From contig SHMW01000019.1 in assembly GCA_008080735.1 (NCBI GenBank), forward strand, positions 18,581-33,613: a stretch of DNA of 15,033 nucleotides, given 5' to 3'. Below the pieces are notes generated by a model. It had not been told where the DNA came from. It searched no databases and saw only the letters and a list, made by a program, of their open reading frames with translations. Below, in pieces: positions 590 to 5,954 of the stretch (positions are counted from its first letter, which is position 1; every line of letters starts with the position of its first letter). The stretch comes from Promethearchaeota archaeon (lineage in GTDB: Archaea; Asgardarchaeota; Lokiarchaeia; Sigyniarchaeales; SOKP01). Both the position numbers and the translations under genes were made by a program.

Positions 590-745
590 AAGAAGGGTTA
601 GCAACTAAAAAATTTGCGATGAACATTACCGTTCCACTAACATTGGATTTCGCCCTCTTTAAACTCTCACCGAGTTTAATTCTCTCCCTCTTTCTTTCAT
701 TTGTGTGGTGGTGATGTTCACCCTTTTCACTTATTCTTTTTTTCT
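590..745 (+). ncRNA. Candidate structured small RNA of unknown family
   Basis: Manual fold: AGAAGGG 591-597 / CCCTTTT 721-727; hairpin GCAA 601-604 / TTGC 614-617; TGAACATTACCG 620-631 / TGGTGATGTTCA 709-720; CCAC 634-637 / GTGG 705-708; apical perfect 8-bp hairpin TTAAACTC 659-666 / GAGTTTAA 672-679 with loop TCACC. G-U wobbles work on the + strand only. Upstream TATA-like box, downstream T7 tract, locally higher GC than the flanks. Confidence 0.55.
619..714 (+). CDS. Possible 31-aa hydrophobic peptide MNITVPLTLDFALFKLSPSLILSLFLSFVWW (below ORF-track cutoff)
   Basis: ATG 619-621 to TGA 712-714, read manually; C-terminal ~20 aa are TM-like. May be a by-product of a pyrimidine-rich RNA. Confidence 0.25.
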   Translation: MNITVPLTLDFALFKLSPSLILSLFLSFVWW

Positions 746-799: not shown

Positions 800-1603
800 T
801 TAGGATAAGAGCTCTAAAATATTGAGTTTAAGTCCATCTTCTCCTGCTATCACGCGCTCTATGTTTGTTAGGGCTTGAATTTTTGCGACTTGACTCGGAA
901 CAAAATTTTTTTGTGAAAGTGGACTGTCCATATACGCACCAAAGTGATTTAATATAAGTGTTTTTGGAGGAGGGCTGATTTTATTTAGTTCTGGTAAGAC
1001 CTGATCAGTTGAGAGATGCCGACGACAAATGACGGAATCTGGACGTAAAAGATTGAGGATTAATATATCTACCCCAATAAATTGCTTTCCAAATCCCTCA
1101 AACACAGTAGTGTCACTACTATAAGCGATTGAATACTCATTTAAGTCAAAAATGATTCCAAATCCTTCTACATCGGCATGGGTTATTTTTGTACCATTGA
1201 GTTTGAGATCCTTATACTGAATCGATTTTGTGGCATTTAGAATATGAACTTGTTCAAGCATATTTAAATGATATTGCGAAAGGTTTTTGACGACTTCTTT
1301 TGTTGTGATTAGCGTTCCCTTTCTGTAGTAAATATGATTTTTATCATGGAGTACTCTTCTGGACCCTTCAATCATAACAGCTAAATCATTATAATGATCC
1401 AAATGAAAATGGGTGACGATAAATAATTCTGTTTTTGTTGGGTCTTCTTTATATTGATTAATACGCACAATAGCACCTGGACCAGGATCGATATGAGTTT
1501 GTATACCACCTATTTTTAATAAAATTCCCCCCGTTGCTCTATATTGTGTTCTAACATGGTGTCTTCCGCCCCCTGAACCAAGAATAATTATTTCATCATT
1601 CAT
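800..1603 (-). CDS. MBL-fold metallo-hydrolase (RNase Z/PhnP-like archaeal family), ~267 aa
   Basis: LGSGGG start motif, DPGPG, THFHLDH (HxHxDH), TH, SDT, HLS and HFG metal motifs. ATG at 1603 (MNDEIIILGSGGG) is preferred over the ORF-track TTG at 1669 because the family fold starts there. Confidence 0.9.
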   Translation of the reverse strand: MNDEIIILGSGGGRHHVRTQYRATGGILLKIGGIQTHIDPGPGAIVRINQYKEDPTKTELFIVTHFHLDHYNDLAVMIEGSRRVLHDKNHIYYRKGTLITTKEVVKNLSQYHLNMLEQVHILNATKSIQYKDLKLNGTKITHADVEGFGIIFDLNEYSIAYSSDTTVFEGFGKQFIGVDILILNLLRPDSVICRRHLSTDQVLPELNKISPPPKTLILNHFGAYMDSPLSQKNFVPSQVAKIQALTNIERVIAGEDGLKLNILELLS

Positions 1604-1684
1604 TAGAATAAATGTTTTTGATTTAATTAAGAAAAGATTAATTGAACTTATTTTTATCCTTAAGCTCAAATCATAAGGGTGTGA

Positions 1685-2212
1685 TTATGGGTTTTTTCGA
1701 TTAATAAGCTTTTTTGCCATCATCCTAAATGCTTTCTCAACATTATGCCCTGTCTTAGCAGATGTCTTTACATACCCCATCATATTAAAAGTATCCATTA
1801 TATTAAGCATTTGCTCGTCATACACCGCAATAAAATCTTTCAAATCATATTTTGTACCCACAAGAATAATAGGCAAGGTGATATCATGGAGACGAACAAT
1901 ATTAACCCATTCCACCAATTCATCCATGACGGGCTCACGAGTGAGGTCGGTTAATAATAAAGCGCCCCGCGCTCCCATTACATAATTCTCAAGTAGATGT
2001 CTAAACCGCACTTGCCCCCCAAAATCCCAAAGTTGAAGTGTGCATTCTGCTTTGGAATCAAATTCAATTTCTTTAATGAAGAAATCTACGCCGACCGTCA
2101 TAATAGTTGATTCATCGAACTTACCCTCCACATATCTCCGTAATAAGGAGGTCTTCCCTGAGCCCGCATTCCCAGCTACTAAAATTTTATAGAGATATTT
2201 TTTTTTCTCCAC
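1685..2212 (-). CDS. Rab/Ras-like small GTPase (Asgard type)
   Basis: G1 GNAGSGKTS, G2 with RabF1-like TVGVDF, G3 LQLWDFGGQ, G4 GTKYD, G5 TSAKTG; 175 aa, GTG start, no C-terminal Cys. Confidence 0.95.
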   Translation of the reverse strand: MEKKKYLYKILVAGNAGSGKTSLLRRYVEGKFDESTIMTVGVDFFIKEIEFDSKAECTLQLWDFGGQVRFRHLLENYVMGARGALLLTDLTREPVMDELVEWVNIVRLHDITLPIILVGTKYDLKDFIAVYDEQMLNIMDTFNMMGYVKTSAKTGHNVEKAFRMMAKKLINRKNP

Positions 2213-2378
2213 ACAACCAGCCTTTTTCTAATGTAATGGGTCTCTATTGTTATTATATAGTAATGCATATTTAAATATGGATTCTTTGTTTTTGTAGCAA
2301 TCCCTTTGAAAAGAATTCTATAAATTTCCAAGAAAGCTTATATGGATGTCAAGATTAATAAAAGAAAAAAAAGTAGAT

Positions 2379-3689
2379 TTAAAAGACACTTCCCTTAATT
2401 GAAGGATAAATAAATTGAAGGAAACTTTGAAGAAGTCCGTTGAAATGAAATATTACTATTAGGAAAAGTACAATCATGAAAATAGAAACTCCTAAGGCGA
2501 CAAAATTTAATGCGATTTTTTTCTTGGATAATTTTGGTTCAGAGAGATTCTGCGTTTTATAGAAGATTTCAATACCGGCAATCCCTATTAAGACAAATGA
2601 ATTGAAATAAAAGAGAAGTTTAAACACAGGAAATCCATATGACCAGACAATAAAGCCCTCTTGATTAACTTCAATCACTTTACCCATATATTCCGTAGAG
2701 ATAAGGTAATTTCCGTTTTCTAATTGGTCGGATTCATAAGGAATCATTAAATCTCTCTCAAACATCCAGACGATTTCTTGTGTTGTTCTATTTATTTCAA
2801 GAATGCGGTTATTATAACTATCGGTAATAAGTAAATTTCCGTTATCTAACTCATCGGCATCTCTTGGCCAGCGTAATTCTATCACACTTTCCCATACTTT
2901 TTCTTTGTTAGAATAATTTACTTCAACAATTCTATCATTTTCGGAATCTGCAATAATCACATTACCGTTTTCTAAGTAATCAGGGTTATGTTGGCGTGAG
3001 AGTAGAGTTGCATTTTCATAATCTCCATACCACCATACTATATTTGATGCATTATTCGCATTTATGGATTCTGCGCTATAATTTAATTCGACCACTAAAT
3101 CAAAATTCCTGAGAGACACCAAACAAGCATTCCATTCCCCGTATTGCTTAAAATCCACATCATTAATATGAGTCCAATCATAGGTTTTGGGATTATTATA
3201 ATAATGATTCTCATCCCATTCTTCATTAACCTCCGTCCAGTTAATTTTAGACGGCTCCCAAGACCAAATGATTTCTTTAGTATTATAGTTAATTTCTATT
3301 ACCCGATCAAAAGTGGTATCTGCGACTAGTAAATTCCCATTAGGTAGTTCTTCAACTTCATGTGGCATTGCTAAACCCGAGATTTCCCAAGTTATCCTTC
3401 CATTTTCATCTATTTCAATGATCCTGTTATTTGCCGAATTAATAGGCATAGGAACTTGATTGCGAACACGCGGAGGATGTGCAAACATTTCATTTAAACT
3501 CACCGCACAGATTAGAGTGTTGCCATTTGCTTTTCGATCAACATCGTGAGGGGCTAAAAAATTGTTGTTGAAAAATAATTGGGGGATCATTACCAAGTTA
3601 AAGGAAACTAATAGTAATATTATCAGTATGCGTATTTTGGTTCGAATTCTTAATCTTTGTATCCGCTCAATAAAATCATCAAGCGTCAT
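2379..3689 (-). CDS. Membrane-anchored arylsulfotransferase (ASST)-like beta-propeller protein
   Basis: DWTHINDVD and SRQHNPD motifs typical of the ASST family; repeated blades (E/D)LxNGNxLIxDxxNxRIxEIN..IxW; one N-terminal and two C-terminal hydrophobic helices. Confidence 0.8.
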   Translation of the reverse strand: MTLDDFIERIQRLRIRTKIRILIILLLVSFNLVMIPQLFFNNNFLAPHDVDRKANGNTLICAVSLNEMFAHPPRVRNQVPMPINSANNRIIEIDENGRITWEISGLAMPHEVEELPNGNLLVADTTFDRVIEINYNTKEIIWSWEPSKINWTEVNEEWDENHYYNNPKTYDWTHINDVDFKQYGEWNACLVSLRNFDLVVELNYSAESINANNASNIVWWYGDYENATLLSRQHNPDYLENGNVIIADSENDRIVEVNYSNKEKVWESVIELRWPRDADELDNGNLLITDSYNNRILEINRTTQEIVWMFERDLMIPYESDQLENGNYLISTEYMGKVIEVNQEGFIVWSYGFPVFKLLFYFNSFVLIGIAGIEIFYKTQNLSEPKLSKKKIALNFVALGVSIFMIVLFLIVIFHFNGLLQSFLQFIYPSIKGSVF

Positions 3690-3746
3690 ACATTTCCTAA
3701 AAACCAGATGATATTTAAGATTTGTTAAAAAGCTATAAATGCCAAT

Positions 3747-5954
3747 CTATAAAGACACCCTTACTATTTTGTTAATCTTATCTAGAAGTTGATCAAGTCT
3801 TTGAGCTATTTGCTTTTCTAATTTTCTTTTGGACAAATTTATTTTTTGGGATTTTTTTAGATTATAAAGGTTTCTTACTTTTTTCTCCCCTAACTTTCCG
3901 TAGTATGCTAATTTTTGATGATAAATGTTTTTTTGATTAAATTTTTGTATAGGTAAATTAAATGGAATTTTAAATATGTGCCGTGAGCTTTTCATAATTC
4001 GGACTTTTTTGGTTAATAATGGAGAATTAAGAATTGCCGAAAGATAATAGGCCTCTTCTAAAGAAGATGAATTATAGAAACTTAAATCCCCTGTAACGAT
4101 AAAATTTCCTTTTAGAACTGCCGCTTTCAAAAGCGACCCTGAATTATTGTAGACGACTTTAAGCCTTGCTTTTTGTCTTTCATTACATAATTTAGACCAT
4201 CTATTTAAATTATCCATTAAAGAATTGGTTTTCGTTGTGCTTTTTTTCAAATTCATGTATGTTTTATTAATTTTGTCATAAAATTTCTTGGCTTTAGGTG
4301 GAAGGTTGGTATAGTTAAATTGAAGCGTCTCCCGAGATATAGGAAGGAAAACATTATATTGATCGAAAATAAAAAACTTTACAAGTTCAGTGCTTTTAAT
4401 TACTTTGAAAATATGTAGTTTTTCAACGATCTCATCATTAAATTCTTTCTTTTTCCATGGAGCTTTCGCACGCTTAAAGATTCTTTCATCAGGATTTATC
4501 TTATAGTATTCATTATTAATATCTTCAATATTTACAAAAATAAGATTTCTGGGATTTAGATCCGCACCTTTATGAAACAATTCTTTATAATAACTTTCTT
4601 TAAGATTACCAAGTTCTTTTTTCGTGTCTTTTGGGATTAACTTTTTAGTATACATTTTCCCATTTTTTTTAATAGAATCAAAGGGCACTAATGGTTCTTG
4701 TTTAACTAATTTAAGAACTATGTTTCTGAAGTAATCTACATCTTGATTATTGTTTTTCAGACCATATATGAAATTTAAAACTTCCTTTTGGTAATGATTA
4801 TTATTTAACTTTTTTTTCGCAAAGAGACAGATAAAATTCACATTAAATGTTTTTTGGATTGGATCTGAAAAAGACCATATTTCTACATCTTCCAAATCAT
4901 GAAAATTTCTGAATCGAGAAGCGTGCGAACCATTGATGATTCCCTCTGATAATACAAAAAAGATTTTTCCCCCATCTTTCAAAAAAATTCTATGAGCTTG
5001 ATAGAAAAAAAGAGTAGCTATTTCTGTATTCAAAATATTTTTTGCTCTGGGTTTAATTTTCAGCGATTCCGCCAAGTGTTTAATAAATTCTTGTTCTTTC
5101 GCTGAATTTACGTCTCTTAAAGTATACCATGGAGGATTTCCTATAATTAAATCAAATTTTTGTTTGATAAATTTTTCATTAGGATTTAACGAGTTAATAT
5201 TATAAAGATTATTGTTTAAATCAGAGAAAATTTTTTTTAGTAGAAGGAACAAATTACATCTCGAGATAAATATAGAAATTGGATTGATATCATATCCAAA
5301 AATTTTGTTAATCCATTCAACCTTCTTTTCTCTGGAGTTATCTGATTCGATTATTCTTTTTGTTATCGCAAGTAAAAAATTGCCGGAGCCACAGCAAGGA
5401 TCAAGAACCTTCTCTCCAACTTCATAAATATCCACCATCTTTTCTGTTAGAAACGGAGGTGTGTAAAATTCTCCAGTATTATGACGAATATGGGAAGGAA
5501 TTAATTTCTGTAGTGCAAAATCTAAATAATAGTAAGACTTTATTTTTTTAGATTCAATTGAGTCTAATAATTTCTGAATAATCGCCCCTATTTTGGAGAA
5601 ATCATTTTCAGATAATAAATGTTGAATGGGATTAAAATAATCGAGATCATCTGCAATTAATTTTGGGTAATTTTGCTTGATTTCTTTTTTGATTTTAATC
5701 AACTGCTCCTTATAATTCTTATGAGAATTCCCAATAGTTCTCTGGAATCCAAACTTTGCGATTAAATGAAAGCAGAGAAAATAAATTAAGGAAAAATAGA
5801 TATATAAATCCATATTTACGTTCTTTTCAAAATAAAATTTACTAAATACTGTTTTCCATTTTCTATACTCTTTAGTCTGTTCAAGCTCATATTTCTTAAA
5901 TAAAATTTTAAAAGAGCTAAATTCATGCTTAAAATATTCCCGAAATTTTTCCAT
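3747..5954 (-). CDS. N6-adenine DNA methyltransferase (gamma class, type IIG/Eco57I-like M + target recognition region)
   Basis: GEFYTP (motif X), VLDPCCGSGNFL (motif I), GYDINP, FDLIIGNPPW (motif IV), LKDGG; C-terminal EAYYLSAILNS typical of TaqI-C/IIG specificity regions. Confidence 0.9.
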   Translation of the reverse strand: MEKFREYFKHEFSSFKILFKKYELEQTKEYRKWKTVFSKFYFEKNVNMDLYIYFSLIYFLCFHLIAKFGFQRTIGNSHKNYKEQLIKIKKEIKQNYPKLIADDLDYFNPIQHLLSENDFSKIGAIIQKLLDSIESKKIKSYYYLDFALQKLIPSHIRHNTGEFYTPPFLTEKMVDIYEVGEKVLDPCCGSGNFLLAITKRIIESDNSREKKVEWINKIFGYDINPISIFISRCNLFLLLKKIFSDLNNNLYNINSLNPNEKFIKQKFDLIIGNPPWYTLRDVNSAKEQEFIKHLAESLKIKPRAKNILNTEIATLFFYQAHRIFLKDGGKIFFVLSEGIINGSHASRFRNFHDLEDVEIWSFSDPIQKTFNVNFICLFAKKKLNNNHYQKEVLNFIYGLKNNNQDVDYFRNIVLKLVKQEPLVPFDSIKKNGKMYTKKLIPKDTKKELGNLKESYYKELFHKGADLNPRNLIFVNIEDINNEYYKINPDERIFKRAKAPWKKKEFNDEIVEKLHIFKVIKSTELVKFFIFDQYNVFLPISRETLQFNYTNLPPKAKKFYDKINKTYMNLKKSTTKTNSLMDNLNRWSKLCNERQKARLKVVYNNSGSLLKAAVLKGNFIVTGDLSFYNSSSLEEAYYLSAILNSPLLTKKVRIMKSSRHIFKIPFNLPIQKFNQKNIYHQKLAYYGKLGEKKVRNLYNLKKSQKINLSKRKLEKQIAQRLDQLLDKINKIVRVSL

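Follow-up and report, generated by a model that had tools for sequence, protein, structure and literature searches.

A 15,033-nt stretch of a lokiarchaeal genome (Promethearchaeota archaeon, contig SHMW01000019.1; hereafter the window) carries on its plus strand, from position 592 to about position 745, what is very probably a gene, transcribed independently, of a small RNA that is shaped like a hairpin and about 135-150 nt in length. As judged from sequence comparisons, this RNA represents an uncatalogued family that, as searched, is confined to one GTDB family, namely, the window genome's own family of Lokiarchaeia (Promethearchaeia), referred to here as f1. The RNA belongs to no described family and is absent from Rfam 15. 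With regard to its function, we tentatively propose, with somewhat less than even confidence, that it acts in trans, by pairing with another RNA through an open and invariant internal loop.

Predicted fold and parts of the RNA

A preliminary description of this DNA, made from its letters, had proposed a stand-alone structured RNA at this place and had named a comparison with dinucleotide-shuffled sequences as a way of checking its folding energy. In RNAfold, the minimum free energy (MFE) of positions 592-726 of the plus strand is -33.9 kcal/mol vs. -21.6 +/- 3.0 kcal/mol for 200 dinucleotide shuffles, none of which folds as low (z = -4.05). A longer stretch of this strand (590-745) gives -35.2 kcal/mol vs. 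-22.8 +/- 3.2 kcal/mol for 200 dinucleotide shuffles (z = -3.87), and the minus strand of the region reaches a z-score of only -1.28. The helices described earlier, that is, those of 591/592-597 with 721-726/727, 601-604 with 614-617, 620-631 with 709-720, and 634-637 with 705-708, as well as an 8-bp hairpin, are reproduced by RNAfold. The outer and middle stems, the apical hairpin, and the big loop of that structure are also conserved across the family, while its pairing of 644-647 with 696-699 is weak and not conserved.

The RNA is composed of an outer stem (P1), a 5' bulge, a middle stem of variable sequence (P2), an internal loop of about 45 nt, and an apical hairpin (P3). Its parts and flanking signals, all on the plus strand, are as follows (R1 and R2 are covariance models and A3 is a family alignment, all three described below):

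559-568, plus: TATA-like box, T/A-rich, 24-33 nt 5' of the first base of the outer stem
592-726, plus: structured core from one end of P1 to the other, a full-length match to both R1 (62.2 bits, E 2.6e-11) and R2 (75.6 bits)
592-598, plus: 5' strand of P1, which starts GAAGGG; its partner is 720-726 (each of the 7 pairs shows compensatory changes, and 93% of cells are paired)
601-617, plus: optional small hairpin in the 5' bulge between P1 and P2 (601-604/614-617 in the MFE fold), which most genera lack
620-637, plus: 5' strand of P2, variable in sequence; its partner is 705-720 (12 pairs, all with compensatory changes)
640-658, plus: 5' strand of the large internal loop, 19 nt, invariant in the comparison of copies
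659-679, plus: apical hairpin P3 (659-666/672-679), of 8 bp here and of 9 pairs in the model, each with compensatory changes; 97% of cells paired
680-704, plus: C/U-rich 3' strand of the internal loop; in A3, its first ~10 nt are semi-conserved and the remainder is A/U-rich and variable
705-726, plus: 3' strands of P2 and P1, as placed by the family alignment and the MFE fold
727-745, plus: C/U-rich tail with a T-run at 737-743, a likely terminator according to the family profile 3' of P1

The strands of the internal loop are poor in G and stay unpaired in centroid folds. An 8-nt word that had been reported as duplicated is indeed present twice in the window sequence (653-660 and 686-693). The loop of P3 in the window copy (667-671) reads UCACC.

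Copies of the RNA and their distribution

The assembly that contains the window (4.1 Mb in 140 contigs, 93% complete) was found by BLAST to hold a second copy of the RNA on another contig (L153:6086-6196, minus strand). In this paralog, the invariant loop strand is identical to the letter, the stems differ in sequence yet are complementary, and the hairpin loop differs. BLAST over 60 relatives gave matches in 35 of 36 f1 genomes. The 19-nt loop word was detected in at least 119 contigs in a scan of 185,579 species genomes, nearly all of them labelled Promethearchaeota/Promethearchaeia, and also in more than 120 metagenome contigs. A few metagenome-assembled genomes (MAGs) with this word bear the labels of Hermod-, Hod- or Odinarchaeota; since their copies are near-identical to the Loki ones, we do not trust these labels. 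A handful of bacterial contigs contain the exact 19-mer, but none of them is matched by the covariance model, and these occurrences were rejected as chance.

Covariance model R1 was seeded with 13 similar members, the structure of which was set by hand (alignment A2), while model R2 was built from all 97 hits. In samples of genomes many of which are incomplete, R1 detected the family in 116 of 126 f1 genomes (~92%) and in none of 24 genomes of six sister families of the same class; with R2, 24 of 25 f1 genomes were positive, and the 125 genomes sampled from 26 other Asgard families gave no hit. From 0 to 7 model matches were obtained per genome, and tandem pairs are common, their members being about 300 nt apart at several loci. 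As near-identical tandem copies break assemblies, these copy numbers are lower bounds; for instance, in genome G016, four identical copies (L200-L203) end exactly at contig ends (contigs C16, C42, C64, and C76).

Covariation of stems and invariance of the loop

The 97 hits realigned to R1 form alignment A3 (87 distinct rows), which is the basis of R2. A MAFFT alignment of 21 members (A1) had given no consensus structure, since the variable stems were misaligned in it. The homologs and covariation that the preliminary description proposed to seek across Asgard genomes are present, the former in f1 and the latter in A3, where each of the 28 modelled pairs shows compensatory changes on both sides. 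Standard pairs occupy 92.8% of cells, compared with 35-57% after displacement of the 3' partners by 1-3 columns, and none of 500 shuffles reaches any of five observed covariation measures; A3 is fitted to the model, and the fitting favours the modelled structure in all these values. Independently of this fit, single-sequence MFE folds of members from different genera have the same layout. Five of the six members folded singly share the architecture, with z-scores from -3.5 to -5.0, and the sixth has the same layout with a z-score of -1.6. Inner P2 and P3 are also recovered by RNAalifold when it is run on A3 unguided. A pseudoknot between the variable loops was looked for in the family sequences, and native pairs were no better than pairs mixed between sequences.

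Conservation of letters in the family is concentrated in the loop that stays unpaired, and the sequences of the stems are free to vary, which suggests that the loop is the working surface of the RNA. Positions 640-658 are identical in the window copy, its paralog, and all relatives found by BLAST, and the central 12 nt (644-655) are unchanged in all of the 87 distinct rows that cover this stretch, including hits found by the model only. The invariance of the 19-mer in loci from L034 on is partly by construction, since these loci were found by that very word; the loci found by BLAST and those found only by the model carry the same invariant core. The paralog groups differ in the 3' strand of the internal loop (680-704), including the semi-conserved C/U-rich word at its start. 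The loop of P3 varies in sequence across the family and ranges in length from 1 to 20 nt. The small hairpin of 601-604 with 614-617 is lineage-specific, genus g8 having an unrelated hairpin at the same place.

One locus (L026, at G031:C30, ~1417-1577, plus strand) has an insertion of about 41 nt inside the loop strand that is otherwise invariant, and only positions 40-98 of the model are matched there. It may represent either a copy in decay or an expansion that is tolerated.

Strand and transcription signals

The family alignment contains 144 G-U pairs vs. 52 A-C mismatches, and this excess agrees with the plus strand being the RNA. Among 85 distinct members, a position-specific T/A-rich box occupies positions -32 to -25 before the start of P1, with T at -30 in 74 of the 85. 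In archaea, a TATA box is expected about 25-30 nt upstream of the transcription start. On the other side of the core, positions +1 to +10 after P1 are nearly free of G and rich in T in these 85 members, and a T-run follows. The TATA-like box, the T-run, and the excess of G-U pairs agree with the proposal of a stand-alone RNA of the plus strand with promoter-like and terminator-like signals. A small protein was considered as an alternative product and rejected, since most relatives have a stop that interrupts the 31-aa open reading frame (ORF) of positions 619-714.

Many of the copies adjacent to the metallo-beta-lactamase (MBL) gene described below (e.g., L008, L011, L013, and L016) have another conserved T/A-rich word at -50 to -40 from P1, about 17 nt 5' of the TATA-like box. 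It could be the site of a regulator or a second promoter element.

That the element is not an RNA gene at all, but a repeat at the level of DNA or a part of a mobile element, might be suggested by its multiple copies, its tandem pairs, and the four identical copies at contig ends in one genome. We find this hardly credible, because the chromosomal places of the copies are stable and syntenic from genus to genus, neither a transposase nor terminal repeats were seen in their vicinity, their pairing is strand-specific and includes G-U pairs, the promoter and terminator signals stand at fixed distances, and the four exact matches to the loop word in viral contigs are not matches to the model.

Comparison with described RNA families

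In agreement with the preliminary description, in which the RNA was not recognised as a member of a known family, a search of the whole window and the paralog locus against Rfam 15 (4227 families) gave no match at the gathering score. At E-values up to 10, only four chance-level hits were obtained, the best of 19.6 bits vs. a cut-off of 35. Neither ARAGORN nor the Rfam tRNA model detects a cloverleaf at the RNA, so that tRNA and tmRNA were not indicated. With regard to box H/ACA RNAs, there is no conserved ANA in the G-free, C/U-rich 3' flank, and the lower stems total 12-20 bp. In A3, no conserved C (RUGAUGA) or D (CUGA) words of box C/D RNAs were found, and the hit to snoR9 scores 10.9 bits vs. 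a cut-off of 90. A K-turn or K-loop for L7Ae was not seen either; P3 is a plain Watson-Crick stem of 8-9 bp with a variable loop. In the literature that could be searched, no publication on an RNA of this kind from these archaea came up.

ARAGORN lists only 12 tRNA genes in the whole 4.1-Mb genome and none in the window. This low count may reflect tRNA genes that are heavily interrupted, as reported for Asgard archaea in a preprint (10.64898/2026.10.13.758758).

Proposed mode of action and search for a partner

According to our proposal, the stems would serve to hold the internal loop open, and its working surface would be formed by the invariant 5' strand (640-658) together with the C/U-rich 3' strand (680-690). 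This surface would recognise another RNA in trans by base pairing. The 19 unchanging and permanently unpaired bases appear to point to one conserved partner; since their constancy needs explaining, such a partner would have to be highly conserved itself. The sole candidate that we have seen is the central domain of 16S rRNA (helices 21-23), in which case the RNA would function in assembly or occupancy of this site and not as a general translational repressor. Specific mRNAs would be the alternative partners.

The MAG that contains the window has no small subunit (SSU) or large subunit (LSU) rRNA, and the rRNAs were taken from relatives (four 16S and two 23S sequences of f1). In the 16S rRNA of the same genus (g1), the segment L159:1034-1098, which corresponds to the region of helix 23 and the 690 loop, forms with the invariant strand a duplex of -26.5 kcal/mol, vs. 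-17.7 +/- 2.3 kcal/mol for 200 shuffles, none of which is as good. Additionally, a 16-nt stretch at the boundary of helices 21 and 22, common to all four f1 16S sequences, is complementary to positions 652-658 and 681-688, which abut P3. Two of the 16 positions of this stretch are changed in the 16S rRNA of the sister family, and both changes weaken the pairing.

Several results weigh against the proposal that the loop pairs with another RNA. The helix-23 site differs in two other genera of f1 in which the RNA is unchanged, and the best duplex with the full 16S rRNA of genus g11 (-22.4 kcal/mol) is equalled by 5 of 100 shuffles. The two complementary 16S segments touch each other, with no linker between them, and lie in the reverse of the order required by a pseudouridine pocket, so that both strands of the loop cannot pair at once unless P3 opens. 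The 16S pairing is thus a weak lead only. In the case of 23S rRNA, which was rejected as a partner, the best sites differ between genomes and fall in variable parts. No long antisense site was found in the own genome besides the two RNA genes themselves, and words complementary to the loop are not enriched at start sites. Finally, such constancy over 19 bases would be expected of a protein-binding site no less than of a pairing seed. Among other possible targets, tRNAs give an unremarkable best duplex of -16.6 kcal/mol. The best non-self antisense site in the own genome (-30.7 kcal/mol) lies 47 nt inside a gene on contig C25, and the next best sites are scattered inside genes.

Taken by itself, 16S rRNA is quite an unlikely partner. 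We give little credence to the more specific possibility that this is an Asgard-lineage RNA that works in the manner of the eukaryotic non-modifying snoRNAs (snR30/U17 and U3), the loop of which would pair with 16S helices 21-23, including the 690 loop, and would chaperone assembly or occupy the site without H/ACA or C/D proteins, possibly together with the MBL-fold nuclease encoded nearby.

Two observations made in the course of these comparisons concern the rRNAs. On contig C35 of genome G102 (L168, L176, and L172), the genes of 16S and 23S rRNA are about 50 kb apart, and next after the 16S gene comes a tRNA gene, which, given its length of about 102 nt, probably contains an intron; the same arrangement of 16S and tRNA genes is present in L160. 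In genus g8 (L027:1458-1585, plus strand; L028; and L029), 8 nt of the apical region, identical in letters to the core of the 16S 690 loop, can pair with 8 nt of the invariant strand, in competition with the homologous P3; this variant is known from three near-identical sequences only and carries little weight.

A broad pairing with ribosome-binding sites (RBSs) had been suggested in the preliminary description, on the grounds that the P3 loop UCACC corresponds to the core of the anti-Shine-Dalgarno (anti-SD) sequence; the C/U-rich words of the internal loop might contribute to such pairing. UCACC does occur at the 3' end of 16S rRNA in this archaeal family, the Shine-Dalgarno sequence of the own genome is GGAGGTGA-like, and multicopy C/U-rich small RNAs (sRNAs) that mask RBSs do exist, such as LhrC (PMC4132741) and the archaeal sRNA41 (reviewed in PMC5867862). 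The argument from UCACC fails at the level of the family, as only a few of the 87 distinct members have this loop, the loops of others being unrelated. At positions -22 to -1 of 3234 predicted starts (approximated by taking the first ATG in each long ORF), the enrichment of six-letter words with complementarity to the conserved strands does not exceed 2-fold, and several core words are depleted, while control words that complement the 3' end of 16S rRNA show an enrichment of 4-7 fold at the same starts. Word counts were used here instead of a duplex-energy test, which proved to be without power (the anti-SD control was unenriched in it). As a property of the family, anti-SD mimicry is largely refuted, and we consider it very improbable.

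The constancy of the loop could also be explained by a protein. The RNA would then be a scaffold or decoy, the invariant loop of which, perhaps with P1 and the C/U-rich tail, would be recognised by an Sm-like, KH-type or lineage-specific protein, and it would tether, sequester or assemble proteins by analogy to Y, 6S, 7SK or SRP RNAs. We regard this as nearly as likely as pairing with another RNA. In its favour, the 19 bases are invariant over 13 genera and the paralogs in spite of the variation of the candidate 16S site, the sequences of P1 and P3 are for the most part conserved besides their pairing, the 3' tail is U-rich, and the searches for RNA targets gave no convincing partner. On the other hand, no known protein-binding motifs were seen, including K-turn-type G-A pairs, none of which is conserved in the loops across A3, and the neighbouring genes do not encode RNA-binding proteins according to Pfam. 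TROVE/Ro60 (PF05731) was not found in the own genome, at its 93% completeness, while control genomes were matched, which speaks against the likeness to Y RNAs mentioned in the preliminary description.

Neighbouring genes

Downstream of the RNA gene, the window contains a block of genes on the minus strand (800-5954) that is conserved across the archaeal family and is of an odd combination:

800-1669, minus: MBL-fold hydrolase gene, with the start probably near 1603 (Pfam Lactamase_B_2, E 2.5e-13; relatives of 267 aa)
1685-2212, minus: gene of a Ras-family small GTPase, a member of the conserved block
2379-3689, minus: NHL/beta-propeller gene, inserted into the block in this genome
3747-5954, minus: gene of an Eco57I-like N6 methyltransferase, a member of the conserved block

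The RNA gene is inverted in the genus of the window and converges on the MBL gene. In most f1 genomes, a copy of the RNA borders the 3' end of the MBL gene (product of 267 aa); these copies form one group, and a second group is located about 170-250 nt upstream of a gene encoding a beta-CASP/RMMBL RNase. The second copy of the own genome belongs to the latter arrangement, lying 169 nt upstream of a 500-aa beta-CASP/RMMBL RNase gene, and the same association is found at 8 loci. Further upstream of this copy are a methyltransferase-like gene with a TaqI_C domain (L153:7105-8499, minus strand) and a gene of a 214-aa coiled-coil protein (L153:6327-6971, minus strand). A methyltransferase module common to both copies was considered and rejected, since BLASTP between the two upstream proteins is not significant and their similarity is weak, although collinear.

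The proximity of two nuclease-like genes may suggest that the RNA is a substrate, guide or regulator of the RNase Z-like hydrolase (first copy) or of the beta-CASP RNase (second copy), in a loose analogy to U7 RNA and the nuclease CPSF73. In at least 18 of about 27 f1 genomes compared, the MBL gene has a copy of the RNA about 0.1-1 kb from its 3' end, which may be oriented either way. Moreover, on the 3' side of the RNA, the 7-bp P1 continues directly into the first 5 bp of P2, a geometry that, in our interpretation, resembles the minihelix of a tRNA acceptor and T-arm. The adjacency is not universal, being absent in G007, G013, G022, and G036, and relatives of the MBL protein (40-47% identity) are encoded in sister-family genomes without an adjoining RNA, where nothing RNA-like that could be a diverged homologue was found at the matching place after the gene. 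The beta-CASP gene is patchy, with 13 of the 36 f1 genomes containing it. The MBL protein scores 45.5 bits against the NCBIfam RNase Z model, far under the cut-off of 293, and a canonical RNase Z is encoded elsewhere in the own genome. As the conserved gene order among relatives may be due to simple inheritance, the linkage of the RNA to the MBL and beta-CASP genes is suggestive at most, and we hold a functional connection to be improbable.

Significance and comparison with known systems

Of the known relatives of eukaryotes, Asgard archaea are the closest, yet, to our knowledge, almost nothing is known about their non-coding RNAs. The identity of the partner of the RNA described here would open a view of lokiarchaeal RNA biology, be it ribosome assembly, RNA processing or gene regulation. 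If 16S rRNA were this partner, the RNA would be relevant to the question of how snoRNA-like assembly factors arose. Even if it is a lineage-specific regulator only, it would be useful as a marker and as a new family for RNA databases.

Non-modifying snoRNAs of the snR30/U17 type pair with SSU rRNA through an internal loop. The RNA of the window resembles them as a hairpin with invariant strands of an internal loop that are complementary to the central domain of SSU rRNA. It differs from them in that it has no ACA box, no K-turn, and no sign of H/ACA proteins, its complementarity is significant in g1 and not in g11, and the order of the 16S segments prevents both strands from pairing simultaneously. 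With Y and 6S RNAs it shares a long stem formed by its two ends, a large internal loop rich in pyrimidines, and a U-rich 3' end; it has, however, no Rfam match to either of the two, and no Ro60/TROVE gene was found in the own genome. We know of no RNA-polymerase decoy of the 6S kind in archaea.

Like the orphan structured RNAs of Weinberg-type surveys (e.g., PMC2864571), the family described here is known from its conservation, covarying helices, and distribution and has no function assigned; in contrast to them, it is not in Rfam 15 and is restricted to one Asgard family.

By analogy, the RNA may work most like multicopy trans-acting sRNAs with C/U-rich single strands, such as LhrC1-5 of Listeria, which mask RBSs (PMC4132741), and the RBS-masking archaeal sRNA41 of Methanosarcina mazei (as reviewed in PMC5867862). 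These are not homologous to the RNA of the window, the conserved strands of which are placed in one giant internal loop and not in hairpin loops, and the longest of which is 19 nt and not simply C/U-rich; RBS complementarity, the one testable feature that defines these sRNAs, was not found in its family. RNAs of the RsaE/RoxS type are likewise multicopy, trans-acting, and equipped with C/U-rich sites. What the RNA of the window has in common with LhrC, RsaE, and sRNA41 is that all have genes to themselves, about 100-150 nt in length and furnished with separate promoter and terminator signals, occur in several copies per genome, often in tandem, and expose conserved single-stranded stretches that are poor in G and rich in C and U.

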